Below, in pieces: positions 1 through 19,249 of a stretch of 64,000 nucleotides of DNA (positions within the stretch are counted from its first letter, which is position 1; each line of letters begins with the position of its first letter). This stretch comes from Candidatus Heimdallarchaeota archaeon. GTDB taxonomy: Archaea; Asgardarchaeota; Heimdallarchaeia; Heimdallarchaeales; Heimdallarchaeaceae. Below the pieces are notes generated by a model that saw only the letters and a list, made by a program, of their open reading frames with translations, was not told the origin of the DNA and searched no databases. The DNA lies in NCBI GenBank assembly GCA_021399345.1, contig JAAFKI010000112.1, positions 155,557-219,556 on the forward strand, given 5' to 3'. Both the position numbers and the translations under genes were made by a program.

Positions 1-344
1 CCAGCAAAAGCTTTTGGTTTGGACACTCGTCTCTTAATTTCTATTGATTTAGGATTAGAGCCCAACCTGTAGAAAGGCAAACCCAATAGAACTGAAAAGA
101 TAAGCATCACTCCACCGATAATGAAGAACCAGATGAGAGTTCCTTGACTATCTACATAAAAATGAAGGAAATCCATAACTCCAAAACCCTCAGGATCTGG
201 GATGAAATCTGGATCATCTATTTGTGGGTTAAAACCAAACGAGTCAAGCATCACATTGAGTGATAAATATCCCGCTAGTGCAAAGCCTGCGCTAATCATG
301 ATGATTCCAGCAAAGATTAGCCAGCCACCTCGGCGAGTAAACAA
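1..344 (-). CDS. DUF58 (vWA-like) membrane protein, N-terminal part; runs off the window start
   Basis: Not in the ORF track. Manual translation from TTG at 344, preceded by SD-like AGGTGG: MFTRRGGWLIFAGIIMISAG...LGSNPKSIEIKRRVSKPKAFAG. Two TM helices and the 'TRRG...R..S' layout typical of DUF58 N-termini; directly downstream of moxR. Confidence 0.75.
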   Translation of the reverse strand, partial: MFTRRGGWLIFAGIIMISAGFALAGYLSLNVMLDSFGFNPQIDDPDFIPDPEGFGVMDFLHFYVDSQGTLIWFFIIGGVMLIFSVLLGLPFYRLGSNPKSIEIKRRVSKPKAFA

Positions 345-367
345 TATTTTCCACCTAGTTTTTGATT

Positions 368-1378
368 CTATACGGGTACTGGTAGATTTCTCAATATTTC
401 ATTGACAACCATTGTACCAGTTGTTCCTTCTAATTCTGCTTCTGGTTTCATCATTAACCTGTGTGCGGAAGCTACTCTTGCAATACGTTTGATATCGTCA
501 GGAATAACATAATCTCGACCACGCATTGCAGCAACGGATTTAGCAGCATTTAACAAAGCAATACTACAACGAGGACTACCTCCAAGAGAAAGTCTGGGAT
601 CGGTTCGGGTTGAGACGGTCAGGTCTTTGATGTACTCCATAAGATCCTCATGGATGTAAATTCTAGACTCAACGGTTTCTTTCATCTTGACAATAGTCAT
701 GGGAGTGGTAACTCGTCTGACGGTTTCTCGAACCTGACTGTGTTTCAACTTAATGATATCCATCTCTTCTTCAGGGGAAGGCAAGTCAACTAGCAGTTTG
801 AACATAAAACGATCAACTTGAGCCTCAGGTAAAGGATACGTCCCTTCTTGCTCGATGGGATTCTGAGTTGCTATAACCAAAAATGGATCGTCCAGTTTGA
901 ATGTTGTTCCTTCTACTGTCACTTGTTTTTCTGCCATTGCTTCCAATAGAGCTGCTTGTGTCTTTGGCGGACTTCTATTTATTTCGTCTGCTAGAAGTAT
1001 GTTTGTGAATATTGGTCCTTTTCTCATCTTGAAAGTCCCTGCTTTTGGATCATATATTGTTGTTCCAACCACATCTGATGGTAGTAAATCTGGAGTGAAT
1101 TGCACTCTTTTAAACTCACACCCTAGTGTTTGAGCAAACGATTTCGCCATCACTGTTTTAGCTATTCCTGGAACACCTTCTAACAAAGCGTGTCCTCCTC
1201 CAAGTAGCGAGATGAACATATCTTCTAGCACATCCAGTTTTCCAATGATCACTCTAGCTAGTTCGTTGTATATTTCATCCCATACTCTCTTTACGTCTTT
1301 TGGAGTTACAACTGCTTCAGTAGCTGCTTTCGCTTTTCCTTTTACTTCTTCATTTTTTTCTTCACTCATTTTTTTCAC
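368..1378 (-). CDS. moxR: MoxR-family AAA+ ATPase (copy 1; start may be ATG 1369)
   Basis: Walker A GVPGIAKT, RVQFTPDLLPSD, Walker B LLADEINRSPPKTQAALLEAM, ATQNPIEQEGTYPLPEAQVDRF, GGSPR. Confidence 0.97.
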   Translation of the reverse strand: MKKMSEEKNEEVKGKAKAATEAVVTPKDVKRVWDEIYNELARVIIGKLDVLEDMFISLLGGGHALLEGVPGIAKTVMAKSFAQTLGCEFKRVQFTPDLLPSDVVGTTIYDPKAGTFKMRKGPIFTNILLADEINRSPPKTQAALLEAMAEKQVTVEGTTFKLDDPFLVIATQNPIEQEGTYPLPEAQVDRFMFKLLVDLPSPEEEMDIIKLKHSQVRETVRRVTTPMTIVKMKETVESRIYIHEDLMEYIKDLTVSTRTDPRLSLGGSPRCSIALLNAAKSVAAMRGRDYVIPDDIKRIARVASAHRLMMKPEAELEGTTGTMVVNEILRNLPVPV

Positions 1379-1391
1379 TTTTCCTTTTTAA

Positions 1392-3056
1392 TTAACCGGG
1401 CAATCTATCGATTAAACCCTTTATGAATGTCATATATTTCATAAACATGTGTTCTGGTATAATACGTGGTTTTGCCAAATAGGCCTCAATTCTAATTAAT
1501 GTGTCAAGCAGATCTTTTTGACTTAGTGATGGATCTCTTATACTGAAGTACTCTGCTATTTCTTGAGGTGAGGACATTGATTGTTTTGTCACCTTTCTCA
1601 ATCCTCTCAACATTGTTCTGTGAAGTAGACCCACTGCCTCACTATATGCCCCCGTGTCAACTATCCTCCGTATCTCTCTTTCAAACCTTGACCTTCCTTT
1701 TTCTCCTCTATACTTTGTCCAAAGTATTGGAGTCAGACGGGTTTTCTTTGGTATCAAACGATATCCCAATATAGCAAAAATAATAGGTATAAATGGTGCA
1801 TATAGAGGAAACATGGACATTTCTGTAATAAATCTCATTAAAACCATGGAGTATACTGTAGCACTATAGAACTTCTGATGTGCGTGCCCTTCATCAAAAA
1901 TTATGGGTACGGATTTTGGATCAGTTGTATTCATATCTGCTGTAAGATAATTGAATAAATTGATCGAGAATTGTGCATTATCATTCTCTGTTGGTTGGTC
2001 AATCCATTTATTGATAAATATGTCTGGATCTCCAATCATAACTATTTTTCCTCGGCCTATTGGTAGAGTCATAATAGGCGCAAACATGGCATTACCCCAT
2101 TCATCAGCATCAGGTGTTGCTGTTCCTTCCTTTGCAGATTGGAAATCTGATTCTAACCAAGATGATTCGGTTGTGTAAAAAGGTAGGAATGGCAAGAAGA
2201 AATAACCTGCATCAATACCTAGATGTTCAAGCAAGTTAATAGCTTGCAGCGGCATCCAATCTGTTCTGTAAGCTTTGACTGTTTCAGCCTCATCTAGAAA
2301 GAATGAATGATTTATAGCAACGCTTAATGCTGTTCCAAATTCCATCTGAAGTCTATCAACACCAGATGTTAACGGTGTTGAAACAGCTGGGGTTAGAATT
2401 GGCTGGGCAGGATTAACTGTATAACTTTCAGCATCCATCAATACAGAACCATTAAAAGCAATACCTTTCATCATACCTAGCAGTTCGAAGAAAATGGTTT
2501 CTTCTGTTACTCCACCACCCTCTTCACCAAATCCGAACATTTCAGCTAAGGAAGGTATACCACCCTGCATCATAGCGATTTGATCCCAAGTATTAATTAT
2601 ATTAAATAATGGTTCGAATATTTCAGCCCCTGTTCCATAATCGTCAGCAACTAGTAAACTTCCTCCTCTCGCTAGGAAAGTTATTAGTGAGATTGTGTCA
2701 GTTGTGCTATACTGTGTAGCTGGTCCGATTATCGCAAAAACACCGGGTTCATATACTCTATTCAACAAAGATAAAGAAGACATACCATTGGTAATACCAG
2801 TAAAACCATCATTTTCAAGCACTTGACGTACACTAGATAAACCATCCCAACTATCACTATAAATACTGAATTTTGTCCCATATCCACCTAGACCTACAAG
2901 ACCTAGAAAGATAGGTACTACTACGATCATGAACAGAATAGACATCACAATTGTGTATTTTGTGAAACTAAATTTAGGTAATTTAAATCTAGTTCTTGCT
3001 CTTGATTGTCTTTCTTGTTCTGCCTTTGCTCTTGGTTGGTTTCCTTGTTGGCTCAA
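1392..3056 (-). CDS. DUF4350 (GATase-like fold) membrane protein with cytosolic helical tail
   Basis: N-terminal TM; FSIYSDSWDGLS; FLARGGSLLVADDYG; GRGKIVMIGDPDIFIN; IIFDEGH; second TM; moxR context. Start uncertain (68-nt overlap with the upstream gene). Confidence 0.8.
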   Translation of the reverse strand: MSQQGNQPRAKAEQERQSRARTRFKLPKFSFTKYTIVMSILFMIVVVPIFLGLVGLGGYGTKFSIYSDSWDGLSSVRQVLENDGFTGITNGMSSLSLLNRVYEPGVFAIIGPATQYSTTDTISLITFLARGGSLLVADDYGTGAEIFEPLFNIINTWDQIAMMQGGIPSLAEMFGFGEEGGGVTEETIFFELLGMMKGIAFNGSVLMDAESYTVNPAQPILTPAVSTPLTSGVDRLQMEFGTALSVAINHSFFLDEAETVKAYRTDWMPLQAINLLEHLGIDAGYFFLPFLPFYTTESSWLESDFQSAKEGTATPDADEWGNAMFAPIMTLPIGRGKIVMIGDPDIFINKWIDQPTENDNAQFSINLFNYLTADMNTTDPKSVPIIFDEGHAHQKFYSATVYSMVLMRFITEMSMFPLYAPFIPIIFAILGYRLIPKKTRLTPILWTKYRGEKGRSRFEREIRRIVDTGAYSEAVGLLHRTMLRGLRKVTKQSMSSPQEIAEYFSIRDPSLSQKDLLDTLIRIEAYLAKPRIIPEHMFMKYMTFIKGLIDRLPG

Positions 3057-3444
3057 CTACTTCTACACCCTGTTCTCTTATTCCTCTGAAACAGATATCT
3101 AGTCTCTGAATTGCTTCTTGATAATCGTCATAAGATATATCGGCATCAGTATAACGTGCTATCTCAAATGATGTTAAGTATTCATCCATAACTTCATGTG
3201 AAATATTAGCTGTGTTTGCTACATTAATACCAAATTCTCGTCCTGTTTCATAAGGAGCACGAGCCATGCTAAGAAGACCATCAGCGATGTTTGTTAAACC
3301 TCCAAAAGAGGCTATTACAGCACCTCTATAGTCTTGTCGTTGCTCGAAAATTCTAACATCTGCCATTACAGATGTAAACATTTGGTTTAAAGCCTTAACT
3401 TGTTTTCTTCTTTTAAAGAATCCAGAGGATTTACTACGACTCAA
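2989..3444 (-). CDS. Small soluble DUF4129-like protein
   Basis: YRGAVIASF...APYETGREF...FEIARY matches the DUF4129 (T.REF / FE.ARY) pattern; overlaps the upstream gene by 11 nt. Confidence 0.7.
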   Translation of the reverse strand: MSRSKSSGFFKRRKQVKALNQMFTSVMADVRIFEQRQDYRGAVIASFGGLTNIADGLLSMARAPYETGREFGINVANTANISHEVMDEYLTSFEIARYTDADISYDDYQEAIQRLDICFRGIREQGVEVVEPTRKPTKSKGRTRKTIKSKN

Positions 3445-6400
3445 TTTTCATTTCACCTACTTCAATTTTATCTACTATTTTTAATAATGCACGCACTCCA
3501 GCATTGAAATCTTTTTCAGTGATTTCCTCAAAACCATATCGTGCTTTTTCGAAATACTCTAAAAGAGTACCAATGAGCTCGCGCTCAATTTTACTTTTGT
3601 AAGCTAATAATCTTGCAAATTCTGTAGGAGTCTGACTCCTATATCTTGGGAGATCATAGAATTCTCTACCAATACCCTCCACAACACTCCATGTCTTTAA
3701 CAAACCCTGTTTATATCTTCCCTCTAGCCCATCTTTCTTAATATCATCAATTATCTCTCGCAGATAATCTCTCAATCTTCTTCTGAATGTTTGTTTCTGG
3801 GCATATGTTTTGATTGTATGTCTATTGAACCAGAGGAATAAACCTGCTAGAATAAGAACAACTGCACCAGCTGCTCCACCTATAATTGCTCCTAAATTAC
3901 CTATTCCTAATCCACTGCTTTCATAGACTACTGATAAGCTTCTTAATACAGAACCCGTATTTTCAACTGCATCAGTTGCTGCTATCGTATAAAGGAGAGC
4001 ATATGTTCCTGAAGTTCTGAATCTAAATTGTGACAAATCTACTGTTGCTGTGAAAATATCACTAGTACCTATTCTAGTCATTTCTACAGAATAATCTTCA
4101 ACAACAATTGTAGTTCCAAGTGAAATTGTAATATTAATAGTAACAGTAGAAACATTGGTTAATATGTCTATTACTGATGCATTGAATGTTAAAACAGAAT
4201 CAGGATCAGCTGTACCATTAATTGCATTTACAGTAATTGCGAAAATGTTAGGACTATCAGAATCATCTGTAATGAAAAACATTGAAGGAAATAATCCTAG
4301 ATTAGGCTGAGGTAATGCATTATCATAAGCTCCATAATACCAAGTATAGTTGTAATTATAATCTAAATCTATATGGTAAGTCCATTCATTTGTAAATGGA
4401 ACATTTATCATAAGATCTTGAAAGTTTACATCTACAACATTTGTTAGAAGATTTCTACCTGTAACATTAATTGCAACAAACCACATACCGCTATAAACTT
4501 TTGAATCATTAACGAACACAGAAATATCAATAAATGGATTAGGAATATTACCTGAATAAGTTACCACAGGAACTGCAACTGCCTCTGGAGGATGAAAATC
4601 TCCCACTCTATATAATCCATCTTCAGTATCCGTATAACCAAAATTAGCATCATACCACTGCGCTGGAAGAATTTGTCTACTTCCAAATTCATCTAAACCA
4701 TGTCCTGCATAATCTTTTACTTCCACTGAATATTCAACATACCATTGACTTTGAGAAGCATTCATGGTTATGTTATCTTCATATGTGTCAGGTGCAATGT
4801 TGGTTAAAGTGACACTGCTTGTTGAATCGTAAACACCTAATTCATCATATAAATCATAGTAGATTATAACGGATCTAACCCCTGAATCTGCGTCTGTTGC
4901 AACTACTGTGAAAGTAATATTGAAATAAGGATCATGACTTGCAGTGCTGTTTGGATCAGGTGATAAATTAACACTTACTAAAACAGGTGCTTCAGTATCA
5001 GGACCATAAATATTAATCGTTTGTGTGATAGTTGTTGCTGGAGCATAATCTCCACCTATTGCTATCAAATCTCCTGTAAAAGCAAGATTGTGATCCCATC
5101 CTGCTCCTAAATGTGTCTTATCATATCTCACATAATTTTGTCCTGCAGTTACAAAGAAGAATGCTTCTTCACCAGCAAAAGTTATTGATATCCTTGCACC
5201 TACAGGATTTCCTCCCCATTGATCCTGTGCTTGAAGTTCATAATACTCATCATTTATATCAAAGTCATTCCAAAAAGTTCTATTCCACACATCTCTTGAA
5301 GTACCATCTAAAGCTGCCCCTCCATCATTATCAGTTAGAGTTAATGAAAGAGCATAATACATATTAAAGTTGTCAGCAGCAGTTGGAGAACTTGGAGCAT
5401 AATATTTGTAAGTTCCTCCATCATAATCTAATCCTGTAACAGTTATAGGTTCTGTTTGAGCTTGAACTGCATAACTGGGAACTAGAGATATTATATCTCT
5501 ATCTCCACTAGCTGTAGTAAAGTAGAAATCAGGTGGCTCACCTGTGAAATCTATTTGAAATTGTGAGATAGGACATAAATTCCCATTAATGTCTTCAATT
5601 TCTACAGTGAAGTCAATCGGTAATCCTACTGTATAGGAACTTATTATATCAGCGATTGTTATACGAACCGTCGTTATGTTTACAGTTAATACTGAATCTA
5701 AGGAATCTCCAATCATTCTTGCTCCAGGAAATTCTGCAGCTACAGGTTGAAGGTAAACAATAAAACCTTGTGTTATATCAGAAACATTAACTAATGGGTT
5801 CAAGTATGTGCTAAATTTAATTCCACCTGTAGAATTAGTTGTGTATATATCACTTGGAGAGGTATGATTAGATCCATCATAATAATAATATACATTTATC
5901 GTTTTTGCGGATTCTAAACCTGAGCTAGAAGATAAGTTTGCTTGTATTTCAAAGGTATCTCCTATTTCAATTTCCATTGGTATTTTGCTTAATGCACTTC
6001 CTATGTTATAATAAGCATCGACTAGTGCTGATTCTTCCGTATTTCCAAATGCAGATCCAAGTAAGTGTAGAGCAGGATTAAAAGTACCTATTCTCACAAA
6101 GAAGCTGAAAGGTAATTGAGTTATATCATAATCTACATCATATGTTACACTGTCAGTTCCAGCTGCAGGTGCTATTCCACTATATATATGCTGATTGGAT
6201 GCAAAAACTGCAGTTCCACTATCATCAAACGCATCATAAGTTGCCCAATCAACAACATAATCAAAACTGGTTCCTGTTGGATCTAAAACAGTTCCATTAT
6301 CAAAAAGAATCTGTGTTGTAAAAGAATAAGGAAAATTAGGATTACCAACTACTGGATTAATACTAAATTCAAGCTCACCATAAATTTCAACTATTACATC

Positions 6401-7078
6401 TCCAGGACTTCCTTCTAACCTATTTGGATCAGTTAAACTACCTCTGAACCAAGTCAATAATGTGATTTCACCAACTTTGGAAAACGGATCTATTGATAGG
6501 TCTGAAGTAACTAAATCTATACTAAAAACACCAAGGCTATTAGTTATTGCAGAACCCACTTCATATTGAGGGTTTCCCTCATAGAATAGTTTGTTCCCTT
6601 CAAATGTTGCCTTAGTAATATTATAGTAAAGATATACAGTTTCACCATCCCAAAAATCCCCAGGCAAACCTGAAGTAAGAACACCAGTTACAGTAATAGT
6701 AACTCCTCTGATATATTGACTACTTGGTGTTGGAAGAGTAATTGTTTGAGAATCTCCCAAATCGGGGTCTAATAGGTCTGAATTCTTCAACCTAACTTCT
6801 AAAATCTGTGCTTCTGGTTTTCTAGCACCACTAAGATTTTCAACAAGATTCGATTCATAACCGGGATAACTTTGTCTGTAAGGGAGATTAAATTGAAATT
6901 CATTTTTGGTAAGTTCAATTGGGAATTCTTTCCGTAATTCTGAAGAACCAGTTGATACTGATGAAAGATCTTGAATTTGTTTATTGATTATTGCTTCACT
7001 ATAAACAGGAATTATCAAACTGCTAGTTAGTCCTACTAGAAAAACAATTGTCAATATTTGAAAGGTCCTTCTGTTCAT
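3434..7078 (-). CDS. Large secreted Ig/beta-sandwich-repeat surface protein with C-terminal TM anchor and cytosolic DUF4129 domain
   Basis: Signal peptide; acidic, T/S/Y-rich beta-strand body with DTEAP / DFHPP / DDSDSP domain junctions and many N-x-S/T sequons; TM GAIIGGAAGAVVLILAGLFLWF; tail SQTPTEF...YFEKARYG. Confidence 0.8.
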   Translation of the reverse strand: MNRRTFQILTIVFLVGLTSSLIIPVYSEAIINKQIQDLSSVSTGSSELRKEFPIELTKNEFQFNLPYRQSYPGYESNLVENLSGARKPEAQILEVRLKNSDLLDPDLGDSQTITLPTPSSQYIRGVTITVTGVLTSGLPGDFWDGETVYLYYNITKATFEGNKLFYEGNPQYEVGSAITNSLGVFSIDLVTSDLSIDPFSKVGEITLLTWFRGSLTDPNRLEGSPGDVIVEIYGELEFSINPVVGNPNFPYSFTTQILFDNGTVLDPTGTSFDYVVDWATYDAFDDSGTAVFASNQHIYSGIAPAAGTDSVTYDVDYDITQLPFSFFVRIGTFNPALHLLGSAFGNTEESALVDAYYNIGSALSKIPMEIEIGDTFEIQANLSSSSGLESAKTINVYYYYDGSNHTSPSDIYTTNSTGGIKFSTYLNPLVNVSDITQGFIVYLQPVAAEFPGARMIGDSLDSVLTVNITTVRITIADIISSYTVGLPIDFTVEIEDINGNLCPISQFQIDFTGEPPDFYFTTASGDRDIISLVPSYAVQAQTEPITVTGLDYDGGTYKYYAPSSPTAADNFNMYYALSLTLTDNDGGAALDGTSRDVWNRTFWNDFDINDEYYELQAQDQWGGNPVGARISITFAGEEAFFFVTAGQNYVRYDKTHLGAGWDHNLAFTGDLIAIGGDYAPATTITQTINIYGPDTEAPVLVSVNLSPDPNSTASHDPYFNITFTVVATDADSGVRSVIIYYDLYDELGVYDSTSSVTLTNIAPDTYEDNITMNASQSQWYVEYSVEVKDYAGHGLDEFGSRQILPAQWYDANFGYTDTEDGLYRVGDFHPPEAVAVPVVTYSGNIPNPFIDISVFVNDSKVYSGMWFVAINVTGRNLLTNVVDVNFQDLMINVPFTNEWTYHIDLDYNYNYTWYYGAYDNALPQPNLGLFPSMFFITDDSDSPNIFAITVNAINGTADPDSVLTFNASVIDILTNVSTVTINITISLGTTIVVEDYSVEMTRIGTSDIFTATVDLSQFRFRTSGTYALLYTIAATDAVENTGSVLRSLSVVYESSGLGIGNLGAIIGGAAGAVVLILAGLFLWFNRHTIKTYAQKQTFRRRLRDYLREIIDDIKKDGLEGRYKQGLLKTWSVVEGIGREFYDLPRYRSQTPTEFARLLAYKSKIERELIGTLLEYFEKARYGFEEITEKDFNAGVRALLKIVDKIEVGEMKIES

Positions 7079-7079
7079 T

Positions 7080-10000
7080 TCAGTATTTCACATCCTTATT
7101 AATCAGAATGGTAATGCACTCAATTTCCGATAGAAATTCTGCACAATTGTAATTCGCTAATTCAAGTATTCCGATGTTGGTAATTCCATATGGTGTCATA
7201 ATCTGCGAGGATGCAGTAGATTCTGCACCTATGACCTTGTAGCTCATATGAGATGGTGGAAATGCAATAGTTATTTGCGCAGATATATTCCACGTATCTA
7301 GATAAAATACTACCAATCGGTAGAAATTCGGTCCGTATTCTGTAACATCTACATTAAGAGTTGTATTAAAGAAGCCATTAATATCTGAGTAACCACTGCC
7401 CACATCATTTGCATCATACTGTTCAATAAGCAGATTTGTACTATCTCTGTCAAGAACAAATTCATCGAGTAATGTTGTAGCATCGGTTTTATCTGCTGCA
7501 TCATATGTTGCTTGATTAACTAACCATATTTCTACATTTTCACCAGTTATAGGGCTTGGTGACCCACCAGGGGGTTCTTGATAAACATAAATATCAACAT
7601 CAGGAGTGAAGATATCTCCATCAACTCCCTGATCATGGTAATAATCACTTGAATCTACAGTTGAATACTTCCCATCGAAATAAAGCATAATTGTGTAAGT
7701 ATAATTCTGTCCAAACAAGGCTGCAATATAGTACGCAGCACCAACTGTAACAGGAGGAGTTAAGGTTGATAAAACATTAGTTGTCCCTAGCATGGTATAA
7801 ACACTCGAATTACCATTTGGATCCGTATATGCAGATCCTATTATTCTTAATGTAGCAGGATCCAATGTTCCAAGAAGTAAATCATTTTTCTCATTTTCAT
7901 CTAAAATGTAGTAAGTAACTAAGCGACCTTCTAAAGGTATTGTCAGGTTAGCGAGTTCAAATAGTTCAGTTGAAATTTGATATTGAACTCCTTTTTGCAT
8001 TAAGAATAAATCAAACACTCCTACTGGAGGTGGACTTGGATTTGGAAGTGTATCTTTTGTAGCGTTTATACTTATACCCGTTAGATATCCAGTAGGTATA
8101 ATTACAAATCCCGTATAATTAGTTGAAAGTAACGTCACGTAAGCTAATAACACATAAGCCGTTCCTCCGGGATTACTCGGATTGTAAACAGTATATTGTA
8201 CAGGATTCCATTCCGTATAAAGTTCAGCTACTCCTCCAGCTACAGAAACAGCTGTACCTAGATTGTTTGCTACAGACAATAATCCTGCAGGATTTGTTGA
8301 ATATGCCTGTAATTGAGCTACTGTTACTGTTGCAAAATTAACCGTAGATCCCTCTACAAAGCCTGTTTCATCACTGACTGTTGCTCTAAGAGTATAAGTT
8401 TTGGCGTAATCTGTAAGATAAACATCTTCGCCATCTATGTTTTGCTTGGTAACTGGTAAATACAAAGCTGGTTCTCCAAACATTTCTATGCTTACATTGA
8501 ATGAAGAGTATAGAGTGTTTTCACAATAATACATTGAACTTGTATCTATATCAACATAAGGTCCCATTTGGAACTGACCCCATTTGAAGGTAGGTCCTCC
8601 AACACCATCATCAACTGGAATAAGAGCTTCTACCCAAGCATAAATATTTTCAGATAATGAAAGGGTTCTAACTGTAGCAGTTCCATCTCCAATTGCAAAA
8701 CCAATAACGGGACGACATGGAATATTATTTAATCTTAAAGTCATAATGGCCAAAGCTATATAAGCGGATGCTGAGGTATCTGAACCTTCCAGAAGAAGTT
8801 CTGCTCTATCTCGACCATTGTTATCGTCATTATCAGCTGTAGGCATCCCAAAATCGGATAGTATCTTTTCTAGAATGTATGATGTTTGCTGGTACATTGT
8901 ATGACCATTTGTTATTCCATGTTCAGTAGCATTTGCCGCATAAGCAGCTACCAAAGGAGAGATGGTTTCATAATTCAACGGCTTCTGAAGGAAACGAGCG
9001 AATGTTGAATTATACCAACTCGTATGAAGATAAGTATAATCATCATAATTTGTTGAATCTGAAATAATGGAGGAGAGGTTGTCATCACTGATAAAATAAG
9101 GTTGATAATTGAAATCTCCAAAGAATCCTATTTGATTAGTTGTAGCTTTCAAAGACAACATGTCATTTAGATTATATTTGACATTAGCTGTTCCTTCTAC
9201 AGCACACACAGTACCATTTTCATCAACTAAGTTATCTGTCCAGTTTAAATCATTTGTCAAGAATGGTTCATTATAATTATTACTCCAAGTGGATATTAAT
9301 TGTGTAAGCAGAGCTGTTTGAACACTATAAACCAATTGAGTTACATCTAATTGTTGATAGCTACTTGGAGGGTCTGAATGTACAGCTGGGTCATTATTTT
9401 CAGCTGTTAAATCAAATCTAGTTTCGCCACTCGTCTCAATAAAATCCCACGAGCTCGCTTGATAATTATCCCTAACATCCCACCGATAGAGATAGTTCCC
9501 TAATGTACCAGAAAGAGCTTCTACTTGTGCTATTTCATCTATATCGAGATCTGGGTCTATATCCATGTTATCTAGAAGATCTAGTATACCATCTATGTAA
9601 AACGGTGCATCTCCTGTAAAAAGCGAATCAAACCATGAAGGATTGGTGTCCATTGGTGTGATATCACCAGGAGGTAAATCACGATATTTTCCAATCAAAT
9701 TAAAATAAGGAGTAAAGAAAGAAACTAATAATGAACCTATGATAAAACCTACAACCATTATCCTTTTCACATTATGTCTTGTGCGTATTTTTGGGAAAGA
9801 AAATGATTTTGCTTCAAAAGCCAACAGGACTAAAAATACCTCTAGTATTAAAACAACGGGTACAATGTACTTCAGAAATAGATCGGGCAATGGAATAGGA
9901 ATAAATTCAATAAAATAACTGTTAATAATTGTTACAATTAAAAGCCCAAGAAATAAAATAGAAAAAGCTATGTTCCAAGCAGTTATACCCCTTGGCATCA

Positions 10001-10133: not shown

Positions 10134-10580
10134 CTTCTTTCCTCGTGATTATAAAGTATCAAGAGTACCGATGGTTACCCTAATGACTCTATACTCCTAC
10201 ATTATTCAAAAACTTTTTGCGATATAAATACTTGCAAATTGGCCATCAGCCTCGAGAAAAATAGAAGTGCTAAAATTCCTACTTTTAGACTTTGGGAAAG
10301 AAATTTACACACTTAGTTTAAATATAAACAAGTCTAAAACAGGTTTTTTGTGTTAATATATGATTTTGCATATAATATTACTGAAGTAAGGTATTACTAA
10401 AAGTTTGAAACAAATCTGAAAATAAACAATCTTGTGTTAATAAATAAGCTACAAATTCAATCAATGAAGATGATGTAAAATCAACAAAACAAATTGTGAA
10501 GGAATGTCATACATTCATTAAAATATAACTCACATTTATCGATAAATGGTGAACATTTCTCATATTGAGAACATCGCTAT

Positions 10581-11276: not shown

Positions 11277-11344
11277 GGATAAGTAAGCATTCGAATTTTA
11301 CTTCTTTAGTTTATAGCTATATAGTATACAATAATAGAAAGCAG

Positions 11345-12151: not shown

Positions 12152-12152
12152 T

Positions 12153-13544
12153 TTATCGCCCTAATGCTTCTTGTACTAATCTATGTGATGGGGAATATTT
12201 ATTCATCAACCTGTAAAGTGACAAAATTATGTTATCTTCATACCCATTAATCTCCACATAATCACCACCAACTGAATATAGAATTCGTCTAATTTCAGCT
12301 TCTCTCTTCAGATATTCATCTCTCACTAAACTAGGAAAGACATTATCTATGATATCTCTATATTCAATATTCTGAGCTTCATTAGCTATCCATTCAGATG
12401 AGGCAAGAATATTGAAATCCATAGTAGAAAAATTAACGAATATTACTCGGCTCCCCATAGAATGAAGCAAATGTAACCCTTGAAGTTTCTTTTTTAAATC
12501 ACCTTCCAAATCAGAAAATATTATAGCTATTGAATGATTCAATTGATTGTTTTTAGTAAATTTCACAGCATTGATGAAGTTACTTTCAACCCCAAGGGGC
12601 TCAATATCAAATAAATTTAACATTAATCTCAATTCATTTCTCCCAACTTGGGGAACAATGAATCTACTAACATTGTCCCCATATGCAATCACTGCCAAAT
12701 CATGGCTTGTCCCTCTGATGAGTGAGGAAACTTCAACAGCAGAAGATAAAGAGTGTTCAAATTTAGGACCAAACATAGTACTTCCTAAATCAAGGTATAT
12801 TAGGAAGTGAAGATTTCTTTCATCTTCATATTCTCTGGTAATCAATTTGTCATGTCTTGCAGTAGCAAACCAGTCTATGTGTTTTACTTCATCACCTGGG
12901 AGGTAATCACGAAGTGCAAAGAATTCATCGCCGCGACCCTTAACCCTTTGAGCAAATTCATGGACCATTTTAAGAAGAAGTTCTTTCTTTGTTTTCCATG
13001 GTATATTGATACGTGGTCTTTGGGGAAGCACCTTTATTGCTGTAATTTCTCTCAGAATTCTTAGATTTTTAAACAGCTGTTGATGAGGTCCTACAGCTAT
13101 TTCTATTGGTCCAATTTCTGCATTTCCTCTTCGAACTGCTAATAATATCCATACAACTTTCTGTGTTTGATCTGGTTCTAATCTTAGATATAATTGATCT
13201 GGTATGTTGATACTTTGGAAGTGATATGAAAATCGCAATGTGGTTTTAATCATAATTGTTTTTTTCGAACAATTGGTCAGATTTACTGCAACAGCGAGTA
13301 AACCTCTACTCCTTAGATACTCTTTTGATATTCTCACATCAACATCAAAAGAAACATCTTGTGTTGTTAGGTAGTGAACAAATGCAGAAGCTATTACTAA
13401 CCAGAAAAGAAGACCTGGAATAATTAAGAGATAGTTATCAATAGATAAACCTAGAACTATAGACAAACTTCCCAAAAGGATGAATATCCTTCCATTCTTT
13501 GTTAATTCAAAGACTTTTTCCTCTTCCATAGTTAACTTCCTCAT
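12153..13544 (-). CDS. DUF58 (vWA-like) membrane protein (copy 2)
   Basis: N-terminal TMs; GRGDEFFALRDYLPGDEVKHIDWFATAR, REYEDER; MIDAS-like YLDLGSTM and IFSD. Confidence 0.92.
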   Translation of the reverse strand: MRKLTMEEEKVFELTKNGRIFILLGSLSIVLGLSIDNYLLIIPGLLFWLVIASAFVHYLTTQDVSFDVDVRISKEYLRSRGLLAVAVNLTNCSKKTIMIKTTLRFSYHFQSINIPDQLYLRLEPDQTQKVVWILLAVRRGNAEIGPIEIAVGPHQQLFKNLRILREITAIKVLPQRPRINIPWKTKKELLLKMVHEFAQRVKGRGDEFFALRDYLPGDEVKHIDWFATARHDKLITREYEDERNLHFLIYLDLGSTMFGPKFEHSLSSAVEVSSLIRGTSHDLAVIAYGDNVSRFIVPQVGRNELRLMLNLFDIEPLGVESNFINAVKFTKNNQLNHSIAIIFSDLEGDLKKKLQGLHLLHSMGSRVIFVNFSTMDFNILASSEWIANEAQNIEYRDIIDNVFPSLVRDEYLKREAEIRRILYSVGGDYVEINGYEDNIILSLYRLMNKYSPSHRLVQEALGR

Positions 13545-13551
13545 GCTTAGG

Positions 13552-14496
13552 TTAAATTACAACTTCAACTTCTGACAGAATATTTTGGATAATTTCTGAA
13601 ACCCTAATTTGTTCAATTTCAGCTTCAGGAGACAAGATCAATCTATGATTCATGACTGGAAAGAAAATAGATTTGATATCATCTGGTTCTACAAAATCTC
13701 TTCCTCTTATTGCAGCAATTGATCTACTTAATGTTAACAAAGCTATAGAACCTCTAGGGCTTGCGCCCAATGCTAGAGATGGTACCGATCTTGTAGCAAC
13801 AACAAGTTTTGCTATATATTCGATTATCTGATTGCTCAAAATTACGCCACCTTCTATCTCATTTGATAATTTTTGTAAAGTATCCTTTTTTGTAACAGCG
13901 TTTACATCAGCAAACATTTGTTCTTTCTTTTTCAGCAGCATAGATATTTCTCCTTGCAAAGAGGGAGGATAAACAGGTATTTTTACAAGGAATCGGTCAA
14001 TCTGAGCTTCTGGGAGAGGATAGACTCCGGTACTTTCAATGGGATTTTGAGTCGCAATTACCATGAAAGGTTCTGGAAGTTTGTATGTTTTTTTTCCTGA
14101 AGAAACTTGTTTCTCTTGCATTGCTTCTAAAAGAGCTGATTGTGTCTTTGGAGGACTTCTGTTTATTTCATCAGTTAGAAGAATATTGGTGAAAACTGGT
14201 CCTTCAATGAAATTGAACGAGCTTGTTTCTCTTTCATATATATTTCCACCAGTAATATCTGCAGGCATCAAATCGCTTGTAAATTGAATTCGTTTAAATC
14301 CTACTTTCATTACTTCTGCTAGAGTGCTTGCCATCAAAGTTTTGGCTATTCCTGGTACACCTTCTAGAAGAACATTTCCTCCACTTAGTAGTGAAGCAAA
14401 CATAAGTTCAATGACATTTTCATTTCCAACAATCCTTTTCTTCATTTCGTCCATAATTTTACTGAATATTTCTTTCGTTTCTTGTATTTGTGTCAT
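13552..14496 (-). CDS. moxR: MoxR-family AAA+ ATPase (copy 2)
   Basis: GVPGIAKT, RIQFTSDLMPAD, LLTDEINRSPPKTQSALLEAM, ATQNPIE..GVYPLPEAQIDRF, GASPRG. Confidence 0.97.
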   Translation of the reverse strand: MTQIQETKEIFSKIMDEMKKRIVGNENVIELMFASLLSGGNVLLEGVPGIAKTLMASTLAEVMKVGFKRIQFTSDLMPADITGGNIYERETSSFNFIEGPVFTNILLTDEINRSPPKTQSALLEAMQEKQVSSGKKTYKLPEPFMVIATQNPIESTGVYPLPEAQIDRFLVKIPVYPPSLQGEISMLLKKKEQMFADVNAVTKKDTLQKLSNEIEGGVILSNQIIEYIAKLVVATRSVPSLALGASPRGSIALLTLSRSIAAIRGRDFVEPDDIKSIFFPVMNHRLILSPEAEIEQIRVSEIIQNILSEVEVVI

Positions 14497-15779
14497 TTAT
14501 ATCGCCTTCTTTTTTGTATGATTTCCAACTTCTTAAACAGAAATAGGAATGTATCGTGATCTAATTTCTTTGTTAGTGCGAGCTCATAAAGCTCTCTCTC
14601 TTCCTCTTCGAATAGATGAGAAGGAACAAATTTCATCTTCTCTAGAATAAAATAATTATAACCCTTACTTGGATAAAGTTCATGTTGAAAATATAAATAG
14701 GAAAGAACTTTTTCCTCAACTGTTGGATTAATGGGGGATCCAAATGTATCAAATAGCTCTCTCCGTCTACTCCAGATTTTTTTTGATATAAATTTCTTAT
14801 AGGATTCCTTTGTTTTATATACGTCTTTAATTCTTGGAGTTAAATAATAAAAAATCAACAATAAAAGAACTGCCACGAAGATGAAATATCGAGTTTTTGA
14901 CAACAAAATCACAGCTCCATATGTTTGGTTAACTATACCTTCTGTAGAAGCGAAGGGCCACCTTTTGTGGCTTTCTTCAAAACAAACTAAAGATTCTGAA
15001 CCCCCAGAGTATGCTCCAATAAGATTTATTGCAAGATTAATATTATCAAATCCCGCAGTGTACAAATCATTAGAAAGAAAACTTACTGCAGAAATTGCTA
15101 CTATTACTCCAGAACCTCTACTTATTGCTACAGCTACCTTGTAGCTTCTAGTACTTTCTGAGACTTGATTCCACATCTTGTCTCCATTTTTGTCGATAAA
15201 AGTTGTTGGCTCAGTTGCAATTGATTGAACTTCAGTTTGTTGTGAGCTTGTTGAAACATAGAGAATTGCTTTCGCTTGAGCAAAACACAATGTTCCATTA
15301 ACAGTTGCGGGTGAATGTGCAAAAATAAATTCTGGAGTGGGGTAGTAATTTTCTGTTTCTAAAAGCATAGAAGCAGATATTCCCAAACCTAAATATCTTG
15401 CAAGATCATAGGAAGAACCTGACCCCACAAGAAGAAGAAGGGTTCCCCCTCGCCCAATAAACGAATCTATAACAATTTTTTCTGCAGATCTATAGTTTTT
15501 AGCCCCTCCTGCAATTACAAGAATTGAGGAATCAGGTAGTGTCTTTACTGGTTCGGTTGACAAGATAGTCCTAGTGGTATTAAATCCTCTTTCCTGAAGA
15601 AGTGAATTAAAGATAGACAGTCCACTTGGTGAAGTGTCATATATTGTATAAGGAGGAGGAGAACTAGTAATATTGATGCTTAAGGGAATTGTAACTATAG
15701 CAAATATCAGTAGAGTTTGAATAACCATTTTAAAGAATGGTGAATATTTATTGGAAAAGAAAGCCTTTGAAAACTTCAT
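14493..15779 (-). CDS. DUF4350 membrane protein (copy 2)
   Basis: TM; YTIYDTSPSGLS; FIGRGGTLLL; GSGVIVAISAVSFLSN; CFEESH; second TM; ATGA overlaps on both sides. Confidence 0.75.
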   Translation of the reverse strand: MKFSKAFFSNKYSPFFKMVIQTLLIFAIVTIPLSINITSSPPPYTIYDTSPSGLSIFNSLLQERGFNTTRTILSTEPVKTLPDSSILVIAGGAKNYRSAEKIVIDSFIGRGGTLLLLVGSGSSYDLARYLGLGISASMLLETENYYPTPEFIFAHSPATVNGTLCFAQAKAILYVSTSSQQTEVQSIATEPTTFIDKNGDKMWNQVSESTRSYKVAVAISRGSGVIVAISAVSFLSNDLYTAGFDNINLAINLIGAYSGGSESLVCFEESHKRWPFASTEGIVNQTYGAVILLSKTRYFIFVAVLLLLIFYYLTPRIKDVYKTKESYKKFISKKIWSRRRELFDTFGSPINPTVEEKVLSYLYFQHELYPSKGYNYFILEKMKFVPSHLFEEEERELYELALTKKLDHDTFLFLFKKLEIIQKRRRYK

Positions 15780-16546
15780 TCTACCTCACCTAGTTGTTTT
15801 GTTTGAGATATCTGAATATCGATTTCCTTACCACTCAAATCTTTGATAGTTTTCAATTCCAGTATAAACTGTTCAAGATCATCATAGGTCATTTGAGAAA
15901 TTCTATATCGTGCCACATAGAAGATATCTATTATCCATTTGAAATGGGGGAGGATTTCAGGTAAATCTAGAGATAAGGAAAATTCTTTTGGTGTAAGGTA
16001 AGTTTCTCTTTTAATTCCAAGAACCAATTTCATATTCTTATCCAATTGATGATATCCAAAGATTATGCCCTCAGCAAAATTTCCTTTTTTCAAATAATCT
16101 TCTAAAACATCAACTAAGGTAACAATCCGAGTACTGAATTTTTGTCTTCTTGTAGAAATTGTGGATTTACTTTGTACTGAACTTGCACTTGTTGAACTCA
16201 CTTCTTTCCTTTTTCGAAAGTATAGCATGAAAACTAGTATTAAAATCGCAACTCCTATGCCTATAGGAAGTATTCGGGAAGAAATACTAGGTTTTTCAGT
16301 TTGCGTGATTCCACCATTTGAAGGAGTAGGAGGAGTAGCGGTTGGGTAAGTTGGTCCAGAAGTGGTTGATAAAGGATCTGACGTCGTATTGAAATCCCCA
16401 ATATTTGTTGTAGTAAGCGTACTAACCGGAATATCATTAATACTTTCATAACTTTCTTGAGAACTATTTAACAAGATGAAAATGATTAGACAAACTACTA
16501 GAAGTAGAATTCTAAAATTAAAGTACTTACTAATATTTCTAGACAT
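15776..16546 (-). CDS. Two-TM protein with Thr/Pro-rich loop and cytosolic DUF4129 domain
   Basis: Likely start ATG 16546 (MSRNISK); loop TLTTT...PTATPPTPS between two TMs; tail FAEGIIFGY...YLTPKEF...FYVARY. Confidence 0.7.
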   Translation of the reverse strand: MSRNISKYFNFRILLLVVCLIIFILLNSSQESYESINDIPVSTLTTTNIGDFNTTSDPLSTTSGPTYPTATPPTPSNGGITQTEKPSISSRILPIGIGVAILILVFMLYFRKRKEVSSTSASSVQSKSTISTRRQKFSTRIVTLVDVLEDYLKKGNFAEGIIFGYHQLDKNMKLVLGIKRETYLTPKEFSLSLDLPEILPHFKWIIDIFYVARYRISQMTYDDLEQFILELKTIKDLSGKEIDIQISQTKQLGEVE

Positions 16547-17525
16547 TGTTTTCACCTTCCATGGAATCGTCAATAACTAACTTACTCTCACTTAAGAATG
16601 CATATACCCTACATAATGGCCAGTAATCAGTCAAGCAAATCTGATACTTATGTTCTGCTGTAACATAACCCAAATATGCACATTTGCCTTCAGCAAAATA
16701 CTTGCAATATTTCTTCTCTGTGGATTTTAATAGGCTCTCTACTTTTCGATTCATGTAAACCATAGATAATGCGTGGTATTGTCTATCTTCAGATTTAGGC
16801 GGTTTATCCAGATCAAAAACTGTTTTTACTGACAGAGGCATTTTTGGTTGTATTAGGTTAGAATAAGTTATTTTCGCTCCTTTCTTAGGGAGAAACATAT
16901 TTATGAATAATTTACCAAATCGAACACCTATTACCCCCCCTAGAGAACCAATAATTAAGAAAGATACTGAAAATACAAAAATGAAACCTAGATACCAAAA
17001 ACCTGCAAAGACTCCCGAGATACTAGCTGCTAAAGAACTGAATAAAATCACTTGCGAAAGATGTAGTGTAATAAAAAGTAAAAATGTTATTAGTGCAGAA
17101 CTAAGAACTAAATCACGCGCTTCTTCTCCCCAAAAAAGTGCACAAATGATCCCAGCTAAAAAGAATGGTAAAAAAATGGTGAGCACATAATTGGTAATCA
17201 GAGAATCTATGTTTTGTGAAATGAAAGTGGATAGAAATGGGAGATAAAGAATTTCTTCAGGACTCCAAATAAGTCCATAGAATAATGAAAAATCATCTAA
17301 ATAATACAATATCAAGCTGAGAGTAATTGATATGGCATAAGTGATAGCAAGATACGTTGAGGTTCTTCTGATCAAAACTCCTAGATACTCCCGTTTTCCC
17401 CTATTCTTTAAGGAGGGAAAGAATAGCTTATAGAGAAGATATTTGAAATCAAGCTTAAAGGGAGCAGGTCCCTTTTTTCCTGTTTTTGGTGGGGGAGGGT
17501 TGTAAGAAGCATCTCGTCTTTCCAT
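16539..17525 (-). CDS. Multi-pass membrane protein with C-terminal Cys4 motif
   Basis: 4-5 TMs followed by YCKYFAEGKCAYLG...ICLTDYWPLCRVY. Confidence 0.7.
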   Translation of the reverse strand: MERRDASYNPPPPKTGKKGPAPFKLDFKYLLYKLFFPSLKNRGKREYLGVLIRRTSTYLAITYAISITLSLILYYLDDFSLFYGLIWSPEEILYLPFLSTFISQNIDSLITNYVLTIFLPFFLAGIICALFWGEEARDLVLSSALITFLLFITLHLSQVILFSSLAASISGVFAGFWYLGFIFVFSVSFLIIGSLGGVIGVRFGKLFINMFLPKKGAKITYSNLIQPKMPLSVKTVFDLDKPPKSEDRQYHALSMVYMNRKVESLLKSTEKKYCKYFAEGKCAYLGYVTAEHKYQICLTDYWPLCRVYAFLSESKLVIDDSMEGENNV

Positions 17526-17533
17526 ATTATCAC

Positions 17534-19249
17534 CTAAATTACTATAAGATTCGTCCCCCTTGCAGCTTTTATGATGAACCTTATGAACAGAACATCAAGT
17601 AATAGTATCAAACTAATACCAATCAGTCCAAAGAAGATTTGATAGATAGATATTATCAAAAAAACAGCAAATATTGACAAGTACAGGGTTGTTATTAGAA
17701 GAGAAAATGCAACAATGGCTGTGATGTTAATAGAAGCTAAAATTGATTTAACTCTGTTTTTTGAAGATCTGTACCAAGCAATGCTAACACCTAGAGCAAT
17801 TATAACACTCAGGAGAAATATAGTATTCCCCAAGAAATGCAAGGAATTTTCAATTGTACTAAAAACAAAAGCAAAGATAATAATTATACCAACTCCTAAA
17901 ATCCTAGTAAAACCAACAGAAAAATGTATGTAAAGAGGTGGTGATGAAGAGCCCATTTTTTCATGCAATGTTGGAACATCTGAACCACATGCCCAACAAT
18001 TTCTGCTAAAAGCTGGAACAACTTGGTTGCAGTTTTCGCATTGAAGTTTAGGAAAAGACCAACAATTACCACAAAACTGTCCATTGTAAAGAGGATACTG
18101 ACATTCAGGACATAGCATCATTCTTGTTGATTCGTCAATAAGTCTCTTAACACTCTTCTTCTTCTTAATTTTCTTCTCATACATCGTGTTTTTCCCCTCA
18201 TATTGTTCACAATCATTGATTCTATGTTCACTATGACAACTAGGACAAATTTTCGGAACATTAAATAAAATCCAAATCGCAAATAAACCAAAAATACCAT
18301 AGGAAACATAACCCATTAGTTGAAGTTGGGAAATAATGAATTTCTCGCTAAAAACTTGGAAATTATAATTCCAGTATGCATGAAAACCAACAGAAATTAA
18401 CAGAAACAGAATAAAAATTATTCTTGAAGCTAATTTCTTCTTGTTTTTTCTTGATATGAAGAGAAAACCTACTCCGAATGCAAGTAACATAGAAGTGACA
18501 GAATGTAAGGGAAATATAGTTCTCGTATTAATTAGTATGTCTATTATTTCTTGATTATTTAATGCTGAAGCGAAATATCCTGTTGGAGGATTGCTCAAAA
18601 TTGAGAAGGACAGGAACTGTTCAAACAAATCAAACCATGCTCCATAAAAAGCCCCTAATAAAACAAAAGTTCGATGGGTTGGGATTAAATTAGTTACAAT
18701 ATTCTTTTTTCCAACGCTAATTCTTGCATAGTTTCCAAGAAGAATAAGAAGCGGAAATATCTTTGCAAATTCCTCAATAAGAGGAATTATTGAAACATAC
18801 AATACTGAATTAGCCAATTCATAAGTAGCTCCTGGCACGCCTATTGAAGTTAAAAGACTTCTAAAAGAAAAAATTAGTAAAGTAGCTTTGTTCTCTATCA
18901 CAGTTGCAAAGTAAGCTGTTAGTGAAGCTGTAACTAATAACAATGGAAATATTTTCCTTATAACTGATTTTTCAATATTAGTACTAGTTATGGAGAAAAG
19001 AAAATAAAGACTGAAAATCCAAACTAGAAAAAATAGAATAATTACAAATATTAGTACAATTGAAAAATAATTTGATTCAACATAATAACTCAATAAAGAA
19101 TAAGGTAGATACATCATACCAATCAAAATGCCAACTAAAACCAATTTTCCTAAGCTTGAAAGACTGAAGATTCTATTGTACAAAAATCTGTTAGGAACCA
19201 CTATGGAAGAACTACTCTCACTAACATTCTCCTCTGAAGTTCTCAACAT
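17534..19249 (-). CDS. PrsW-family (M82) intramembrane protease fused to double zinc ribbon
   Basis: PrsW motifs EEFAK, GAFYGAWFDLFEQ, PLH, FHAYWN; CPSCHSEH, CPEC..FCGNC, CENC..NCWAC; three extra C-terminal TMs. Confidence 0.85.
   Translation of the reverse strand: MLRTSEENVSESSSSIVVPNRFLYNRIFSLSSLGKLVLVGILIGMMYLPYSLLSYYVESNYFSIVLIFVIILFFLVWIFSLYFLFSITSTNIEKSVIRKIFPLLLVTASLTAYFATVIENKATLLIFSFRSLLTSIGVPGATYELANSVLYVSIIPLIEEFAKIFPLLILLGNYARISVGKKNIVTNLIPTHRTFVLLGAFYGAWFDLFEQFLSFSILSNPPTGYFASALNNQEIIDILINTRTIFPLHSVTSMLLAFGVGFLFISRKNKKKLASRIIFILFLLISVGFHAYWNYNFQVFSEKFIISQLQLMGYVSYGIFGLFAIWILFNVPKICPSCHSEHRINDCEQYEGKNTMYEKKIKKKKSVKRLIDESTRMMLCPECQYPLYNGQFCGNCWSFPKLQCENCNQVVPAFSRNCWACGSDVPTLHEKMGSSSPPLYIHFSVGFTRILGVGIIIIFAFVFSTIENSLHFLGNTIFLLSVIIALGVSIAWYRSSKNRVKSILASINITAIVAFSLLITTLYLSIFAVFLIISIYQIFFGLIGISLILLLDVLFIRFIIKAARGTNLIVI

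Follow-up and report, generated by a model that had tools for sequence, protein, structure and literature searches.

ATPases of the MoxR class work through partner proteins that carry a vWA domain, as in the pairs RavA–ViaA, CbbQ–CbbO and NorQ–NorD and in midasin. Operons in which MoxR and vWA genes stand beside a transglutaminase-like (TGL) gene were read in 2012 as membrane-proximal degradation systems (Zhang and Aravind, PMC3495828), and in 2015 the DUF4350–MoxR–vWA neighbourhood arCOG01314 was predicted to encode a complex for secretion or membrane remodelling (Makarova, Galperin and Koonin, PMC5898192). A cluster of the mycobacterial Rv3689–Rv3695 type is co-regulated as a block in M. chelonae (PMC8191103). 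Most recently, a 2026 preprint has provided the first genetics for a cluster of surface filament, transglutaminase, MoxR and vWA genes, which forms a sensing pathway: in the Esr pathway of oral Actinobacteria a transglutaminase keeps a filamentous Ig-repeat protein at the cell surface, and MoxR and vWA proteins drive a kinase/FHA relay (bioRxiv 10.64898/2026.09.08.750141). In this study, we analysed a stretch of 64,000 nucleotides (nt; hereafter the window) on contig JAAFKI010000112.1 (positions 155,557–219,556) of a Candidatus Heimdallarchaeota archaeon, known from an 88.6%-complete metagenome-assembled genome. The stretch holds two operons, here called A and B, which share the order DUF4129 protein(s)–DUF4350–MoxR–DUF58 and which, judged from their sequences, are ancient paralogues that reflect an old divergence and not a local duplication. 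The reading that we favour, tentatively and at a little less than an even chance, is that they encode two paralogous membrane complexes in which MoxR–DUF58 remodels co-encoded partners, operon B adding regulated proteolysis by a PrsW-family protein.

The layout was read from open reading frames (ORFs) and Pfam matches and agrees with the initial annotation of this DNA, which had described two coupled operons of shared gene order on the same strand, flanking thyX. Both are densely packed on the minus strand. Neighbouring genes overlap or are separated by at most 23 nt, save for three longer overlaps (35, 56 and 68 nt) that rest on mechanically called TTG starts. The gene complement needed amendment: the shared order stands, but thyX is not the only gene between the operons, since B7 intervenes between B6 and thyX, and operon A extends beyond the window start with the remainder of A6 and then a seventh gene, A7, so that each operon counts seven genes. 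As gene names, B1 and B2 denote the first and second genes of operon B; 'B1 lineage' and 'B2 lineage' denote two lineages of B-type operons. The genes are as follows, with E-values given after the family names.

7080-10133, minus strand: A1, 1017 residues; Transglut_core 1.6e-6; basic N-terminus, three transmembrane (TM) segments and a large region predicted outside
3434-7078, minus strand: A2, surface protein of 1214 residues; PF13559 (DUF4129) 5.9e-7 at residues 1142-1198
2989-3444, minus strand: A3, soluble protein of 151 residues; weak PF13559 match (0.008); basic C-terminal tail
1392-3056, minus strand: A4, DUF4350 2.1e-14 (GldG/GIFT-like ectodomain); N- and C-terminal TM segments and a predicted cytosolic tail of about 120 residues
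368-1378, minus strand: A5, MoxR AAA+ ATPase of 336 residues; AAA_3 2.7e-66, AAA_lid_2 5.8e-22
1-344 in the window (114 codons, 3-344), minus strand: A6, DUF58/vWA protein of 482 residues; full gene at L001:10896-12344
L001:9377-10951, wholly outside the window: A7, multi-TM protein of 524 residues with about eight TM segments
17534-19249, minus strand: B1, PrsW 3.9e-9 (36.8 bits against a cut-off of 23.5); DZR double zinc ribbon 2.2e-4
16539-17525, minus strand: B2, membrane protein with four to six TM segments and a predicted cytosolic C-x7-C-x14-C-x7-C domain at its end
15776-16573, minus strand: B3, single-pass protein of 265 residues; short Thr/Pro-rich segment predicted outside and a DUF4129-type tail predicted in the cytosol
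14493-15779, minus strand: B4, DUF4350 2.3e-12, ABC_transp_aux 1.2e-5; N- and C-terminal TM segments
13552-14496, minus strand: B5, MoxR AAA+ ATPase of 314 residues; AAA_3 2.4e-62, lid 1.6e-22; Walker A and B intact
12153-13544, minus strand: B6, DUF58 4.9e-18 (65.6 bits against a cut-off of 23.4); TM hairpin and vWA domain
11345-12151, minus strand: B7, multi-TM protein of 268 residues (about six TM segments); closes operon B
10581-11276, plus strand: thyX, Thy1 1.9e-59; same place in six loci of four genera

The relationship between the operons is carried by the ATPase, the adaptor and the DUF4350 protein. Identity between the two copies is 50% for MoxR (E-value 7e-109), 27% for DUF58 (1e-17) and 26% for DUF4350 (1.5e-6), similarity between the DUF4129 regions is barely detectable and B3 resembles A3 at 3e-4, while the same between-operon protein comparison found no similarity of A1 and A2 to B1 and B2. 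Homology of A7 and B7 was rejected (hhalign probability 0.9%). Both MoxRs belong to MoxR-proper (AAA_3 plus AAA_lid_2, COG0714), each with a vWA (DUF58) gene directly after it, and the Walker A and B motifs are intact in A5 (GVPGIAKT and ILLADEINR), in B5 and in all 43 relatives. In a MoxR tree of 43 sequences (IQ-TREE, LG+C20), rooted on the third AAA_3 protein of this genome, every B sequence falls into one clade (100/99) that divides into the B1 and B2 lineages, and a Heimdall A clade (99/97) is nested in an unresolved Asgard A-type radiation. The DUF58 tree recovers the same groups (A 97, B 96 and B2 lineage 99) with an identical family order within them. The congruence of the two trees indicates that each ATPase has been passed on with its adaptor and with the front end of its own operon. 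The idea that the ends of the two machines are interchangeable is not supported: each front end stays with its own MoxR–DUF58 lineage, A being pan-Asgard and B found only in Heimdallarchaeia. The base of the MoxR tree is a polytomy, and the trees do not separate a duplication of A from a transfer as the origin of B; nothing pointed to an origin of B outside the Asgard archaea, word-indexed protein searches returning Heimdall relatives only and the genome survey with A-type DUF58 described below almost exclusively Asgard contigs. In a sister family a third operon variant was observed (L045, G031:C135:1-5912), with very long branches in both trees; its genes encode a protein of 557 residues, a short DUF4350 protein (339 residues), a MoxR, a DUF58 protein and a protein of 181 residues with five TM segments.

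In operon A, the full A6 gene matches DUF58 at 9.9e-34 (116.9 bits against a cut-off of 23.4) and VWA_2 at 2.8e-11, and its metal-ion-dependent adhesion site (MIDAS) reads DSSAS, an intact DxSxS that is conserved in A-type DUF58 proteins across Asgard archaea. Its N-terminal TM hairpin, flanked by a basic N-terminus and by a basic stretch past the second TM segment, would place the beta-sandwich and vWA domain in the cytosol alongside MoxR. A2 is built of an N-terminal anchor or signal, a predicted ectodomain of about 1040 residues, one TM segment and a predicted cytosolic DUF4129 tail (TM segments near residues 8 and 1064), and it has 21 N-x-S/T sequons where about 11 are expected. The Pfam scan gave no Ig-like or S-layer-type domain in the ectodomains of A1 and A2. 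The TGL domain of A1, which follows three TM segments and a lysine-rich N-terminus, should lie outside the cell. Aligned with two canonical TGL proteins of the same genome, the core of A1 has no catalytic triad, Cys being replaced by Ala, His by Tyr and Asp by Gln, and its description as a pseudo-transglutaminase is thereby upheld; a PDB sequence search with this region found nothing. The loss extends to relatives: Cys is absent from all eight A1-family members (8/8), and family-level orthologues share all of the A1 triad losses. Members from f3 (f1–f5 being our labels for families within the class Heimdallarchaeia) retain His and have Asn in place of Asp, and in a fused TGL–DUF4129 protein of another class Gly replaces Cys.

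The C-terminal domain of P. aeruginosa TgpA is DUF4129, the same domain as the tail of A2. Operon A resembles the MoxR–vWA–YebA/TgpA operons (PMC3495828; PMC3507681) in bringing together MoxR, DUF58 and a membrane TGL protein, but it carries the TgpA-like parts on separate genes. Its DUF4129 domains sit on A2 and A3 and not on A1, no TgpA_N match was found in A1 by the Pfam scan, the Cys-His-Asp triad is lost, and the operon further encodes a DUF4350 protein and a soluble DUF4129 protein. Fused TGL and DUF4129 domains do occur at other Asgard loci (L097, L143 to L145).

The twin layout is conserved in relatives. Both DUF4350 paralogues lie on one contig, 12–13 kb apart, in 13 genomes of the genus, and the succession of operon B, opposite-strand thyX and operon A is the same in the maps of three genus members and of three other genera of the family; thyX is a conserved spacer between the operons, outside the system. 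Beyond the family, other Asgard classes encode a large surface protein with a DUF4129 tail (826–2261 residues) together with DUF4350, MoxR, DUF58 and A7-family proteins. In a survey that took a single genome for each GTDB species and used aligned A-type DUF58 proteins as the query, DUF4350, MoxR, DUF58 and the A7 family were found together, with their core order preserved, in 59 of the best 80 loci out of 522 confirmed matches, and the loci outside the 59 were mostly on short contigs or had their match close to a contig end. The best 80 loci belong to Heimdall, Thor, Loki/Promethearchaeota, Hermod, Hod, Jord, Frey or unnamed archaea, with two exceptions, a DPANN contig and a 'Nanopelagicaceae' contig. 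The latter (L168, DATKTW010000073.1, labelled Candidatus Nanopelagicaceae bacterium) has a typical Loki-type DUF4350–MoxR–DUF58–A7 arrangement with gene lengths as in Promethearchaeota loci, and is probably a misbinned Asgard contig. DUF58 relatives were present in 171 of the 201 Asgard genomes sampled, and the A-type DUF58 occurred in all five f5 genomes examined (5/5). A pan-Asgard cluster, DUF4129 protein–DUF4350–MoxR–DUF58–A7, close to universal in the genomes sampled, takes its Heimdall form in operon A.

Two variants of this cluster inform on its composition. At Loki loci the DUF4129 hidden Markov model (HMM) found nothing; a soluble protein of 119–125 residues is encoded there immediately ahead of DUF4350 (L170:3930-4289, L155:4524-4901, L147:4388-4759 and L163:4693-5070, Ca. 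Lokiarchaeum ossiferum included) and shows the DUF4129-like motifs 'EAIAY', 'REYA' and 'IYGG', below the HMM threshold, so that a small soluble protein of the DUF4129 type may belong to the core of the cluster throughout the Asgard archaea. In f3 the A set is split, with A1-A2-A3-A4 at one locus, followed by GTP cyclohydrolase I, and DUF58–MoxR–A7, in altered order, at a separate one (53–56% identity to A6). That all seven genes are nevertheless kept fits one functional unit of two sub-modules.

By its composition, operon A belongs to the neighbourhood type of arCOG01314. The two have in common a DUF4350 protein that starts with a signal or anchor and has a TM segment near its C-terminus, encoded beside a COG0714 MoxR and a vWA (DUF58) protein, and further membrane and large surface proteins alongside. 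The 2015 account differs in being computational and in having been made when Asgard genomes were not yet at its authors' disposal; it is without DUF4129, the A7 family, a TGL protein or PrsW, and it places the vWA protein outside the cell. Its proposal amounts to dedicated secretion or surface assembly, in which the GldG-like DUF4350 protein and its membrane partners would form a conduit or platform to export or install the large surface protein, with MoxR as an assembly factor (PMC5898192). Of 14 DUF4350 proteins, 13 do match ABC_transp_aux, the GldG-like family, and seven give weak IFT52_GIFT matches (best E-value 2.2e-4); in Asgard loci that include Heimdall and Thor ones, the gene immediately upstream encodes a large exported protein. 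However, we recognised nothing channel-forming or Sec/Tat-like, neither A7 nor B7 could be matched to a family or fold, the TM hairpin of the vWA protein implies the cytosol where PMC5898192 puts it outside, and B3, with only about 60 residues outside, is hardly cargo, and we consider this explanation quite improbable for the two operons. The mycobacterial cluster has the same order of DUF4350 (Rv3691), MoxR2 (Rv3692) and DUF58 (Rv3693), also with multi-TM partners; it is bacterial, and these partners are the SpoIIM-like Rv3694c and the RDD protein Rv3695, not members of the A7 and B7 families.

Operon B is distinguished by its first gene. B1 is a PrsW-family predicted intramembrane protease in which the PrsW motifs EExxK, FxxxE, H and HxxxN are present and a zinc-ribbon cluster, predicted to be cytosolic, is inserted ahead of the last TM block. 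In ten class-level orthologues, which span four families at 17–43% identity, residues E159, E160, K163, F206, E210, H249, H290 and N294 and ten Cys are invariant. A profile of these ten, run against 1.84 billion representative proteins, found 39 clusters at E <=1e-30, and the named ones are Heimdallarchaeaceae and Hodarchaeales. All seven B genes are conserved in f1, f2, f3 and f5; the Cys4 domain of the B2 gene is kept in f1, f3 and f5 and is missing from the f2 orthologue. As far as found, operon B is confined to Heimdallarchaeia, Hodarchaeales included. Most Asgard genomes have A and no B, and B without A was not seen in the genomes examined, which says little where A is near-universal.

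That B3 carries a DUF4129 domain is borne out only through its relatives: B3 itself has no Pfam DUF4129 match, but a family HMM built from order-level orthologues recognises it at 3e-13 and an orthologue matches PF13559 at 2.6e-9. The MIDAS of B6 is degenerate (DLGST; DxSL(F/M) in f3 orthologues). With an HMM of order-level counterparts, same-genus orthologues of B7 score between 7.8e-8 and 4.8e-4, against 0.063 for B7. In-frame stops occur in some genus members, a TGA in a B4 orthologue (G011:C6:3538-4818) and a TAG in each of two B6 orthologues (G004:C79:10354-11730 and G019:C114:2537-3916); these could be sequencing errors or decaying copies.

A second B-type operon of identical seven-gene architecture, the B2 lineage, is present in the sister families f3 and f4. 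Its PrsW-family gene has kept the zinc-ribbon Cys and lost the PrsW motifs, its second gene has no Cys at all, its MoxR has intact Walker motifs and, in f3, the MIDAS Asp of its DUF58 protein is lost. Loci beyond f1 and f2 that lack the PrsW motifs belong to this B2 lineage, whereas the true B1 orthologues of f3 and f5 retain them. These observations bear on the proposal of Zhang and Aravind (PMC3495828), by which the vWA protein would recruit, MoxR would unfold and the TGL protein in operon A or PrsW in operon B would degrade general membrane substrates close to the membrane, as a form of ATP-dependent quality control. Operon B, where an intact peptidase is paired with MoxR–vWA across the whole class, speaks for it. 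On the other side, the triad of the operon A TGL domain is lost and the domain is predicted outside, apart from MoxR, the conserved DUF4129 and DUF4350 partners suggest dedicated and not general clients, and the B2 lineage has kept its operon without protease motifs; we regard general degradation as improbable.

The best-studied PrsW, that of Bacillus subtilis, offers another comparison. PrsW is the site-1 protease of RsiW. B1 shares the PrsW motifs and is likewise encoded beside single-pass proteins with a predicted cytosolic domain; it differs in its zinc-ribbon insert and extra TM segments, and in being coupled to MoxR–DUF58 and not to RasP and ClpXP. No paper that connects MoxR with Asgard biology or with PrsW came up in a literature search. 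The PrsW–MoxR–vWA pairing is new relative to the literature searched, and the core of operon A is already known; the operons had been put forward as an undescribed system, which goes too far, the core having been predicted from genomes by Zhang and Aravind in 2012 (PMC3495828) and by Makarova et al. in 2015 (PMC5898192).

With respect to topology, TM segments and charge predict that MoxR, the vWA domain of DUF58 and the DUF4129 tails are cytosolic and that the bulk of A1, A2, A4, B3 and B4 lies outside; basic stretches follow the last TM segment of both A2 and B3. This agrees with the arrangement first suggested, of a cytosolic MoxR, a membrane-tethered DUF58 protein and DUF4129 tails. A model of A3 (21-sequence alignment, predicted local distance difference test score, pLDDT, 78.8) shows a bundle of five helices and a basic, disordered tail; the conserved residues are Y39, A42, R62, T67, R69, E70, E94 and A96, and the D4129 HMM recognises the A3 orthologue in G065 at 4e-29. 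HEPN-type bundles rank first in structure searches with this model (Foldseek E 0.037; VIA Z 10.7, root-mean-square deviation 4.1 over 116 residues), but the HEPN Rx4-6H motif is not conserved and the scores are under the decisive level for helical bundles, so that a HEPN-like fold of the modelled DUF4129 bundle is a lead only. The model of A7 (58 sequences, pLDDT 77.5) is all-helical and found no structural match in Foldseek (TM-scores <0.2), and a comparison of A7 with the ESM Atlas returned only low-score unnamed clusters. R406, E443 and P451 are invariant in the A7 family. Pfam gave no match for either the A7 or the B7 family, and NCBIfam none for the proteins A7 and B7. The DUF4350 tails, which by eye share 'Y..A...LY' and '(S/T)PxE' with DUF4129, are not supported as DUF4129 domains (HMM matches in 2/41, at E >1; hhalign 17%).

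Another reading is outside-in sensing on the pattern of the Esr pathway, with MoxR–DUF58 reading from the cytosolic side the state of a surface sensor, which would be A2 or, for operon B, B3. The Esr/PFNA cluster (bioRxiv 10.64898/2026.09.08.750141; PMC8430577) co-encodes a large Ig-type surface protein, a transglutaminase, a MoxR and a DUF58/vWA protein, the same four types of part are found in operon A, and the PrsW of Bacillus is a signalling protease. The role of Esr in surface sensing has experimental, genetic evidence. Esr differs in its Ser/Thr kinases, phosphatase, FHA proteins and beta-propeller head and in a transglutaminase taken as active, none of which is seen here. No kinase, phosphatase, FHA, transcription factor or other output gene was found in or beside either operon when products and flanks were scanned, no beta-propeller was detected in the 14 products or flanking genes, bpMoxR matches were far below those to AAA_3, and a dead TGL-like domain would make covalent anchoring impossible. 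Sensing of this kind is therefore rather unlikely in our estimation. The MoxR–vWA–beta-propeller ternary conflict systems (Kaur et al., 2020) likewise comprise propeller and effector genes, and neither is present among the 14 products and flanks. PADLOC reported no defence family save one marginal DolB row for B5 (4.8e-4), and a defence system was rejected; near-universal single-copy conservation across Asgard archaea resembles housekeeping and not a diversifying conflict system.

We return to remodelling of co-encoded partners. A cytosolic MoxR AAA+ ring would act through the membrane-tethered DUF58 (vWA) adaptor to remodel, assemble or extract single- or few-pass partners with their bulk outside, whose cytosolic ends would be DUF4129 helical bundles or, for DUF4350, a helical tail. 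Gene linkage and the analogy with other MoxR–vWA pairs suggest that the DUF4129-tailed partners are what MoxR–DUF58 acts upon. In operon A the client would be the giant, presumably glycosylated surface protein, to which the catalytically dead TGL protein would bind or lend a scaffold. For operon B we propose a regulated-proteolysis device: an active PrsW with cytosolic zinc ribbons would cleave one of the single-pass proteins encoded with it, B3 or B4 being the likeliest, both candidates by position only, and MoxR–DUF58 would present the substrate or clear its cytosolic stub, much as in Bacillus, where ClpXP follows PrsW and RasP. Which proteins bind each other, and which one is cut, we can only infer.

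Several observations weigh against this scheme. The degenerate MIDAS of B6 and its f3 orthologues makes a classical metal-mediated grip doubtful in operon B. To our knowledge archaea have no sigma/anti-sigma pair, so the analogy with Bacillus PrsW is a borrowed one. The DUF4350 tail, judged by the profile comparisons above, is not supported as DUF4129-like. Finally, the B2 lineage keeps the operon minus the PrsW motifs and Cys4 (and, in f3, the MIDAS Asp), so proteolysis is not the whole function, and the complex evidently retains a role once the protease site is lost. A stronger form of the scheme, which we hold to be decidedly improbable, would make operon B a Heimdallarchaeia-specific coupling of regulated intramembrane proteolysis to AAA+ extraction: the protease would cut a single-pass surface protein, and MoxR–vWA, at the inner membrane face, would pull out or release the cytosolic DUF4129 bundle for signalling or disposal. 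As for the proposed division of labour, by which one module would build a surface structure and the other process or release it, nothing in these data bears on it, and most Asgard genomes have A without B.

The surroundings set limits to the operons. Just beyond the window start, the plus strand carries a gene for an EF-2/EF-G-like GTPase of 755 residues (L001:7004-9271) that converges on the end of operon A, and the switch of strand at this gene after A7 marks the boundary of operon A. Upstream of B1, at 19798-20517 on the minus strand, a gene encodes a helical-repeat protein of 239 residues with weak TPR and HEAT_Nup120 matches, and ORFs of the same size stand at this position in two other genera (L087:11108-11827 and L088:6319-7041). 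Elsewhere in the genome (G000:C55:31983-42531) a third AAA_3 MoxR, of 340 residues, is followed by six co-directional genes, whose products are a membrane protein of 727 residues and then proteins of 230, 530, 313, 620 and 753 residues; having no DUF4350, it probably represents a different, Bat-like type of MoxR operon.

Operon B is a defined and conserved pairing of a predicted intramembrane protease with a MoxR–vWA engine, for which the B2 lineage, its protease motifs lost, is a natural control. Were the coupling of proteolysis to extraction true, operon B would be an analogue, though not a homologue, of signal-peptide peptidase or rhomboid acting with p97, in the closest archaeal relatives of eukaryotes. 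The A cluster, for its part, unites four domain families that recur in eukaryotic cilium-linked proteins or in midasin: MoxR-type AAA+ (dynein, midasin), vWA (midasin), TGL (CC2D2A, CEP76) and GldG/GIFT-like (IFT52). This overlap may be coincidence or ancestry; as a looser corollary, some of those eukaryotic parts could stem from the A cluster. No energy source is known outside the archaeal membrane, and there are thus few means other than a cytosolic ATPase wired to surface proteins through membrane adaptors by which assembly, turnover or signalling at the surface could be powered. The A cluster probably serves an envelope function central to the lineage that gave rise to eukaryotes, and the cultured Lokiarchaeum and Promethearchaeum strains make it experimentally accessible.

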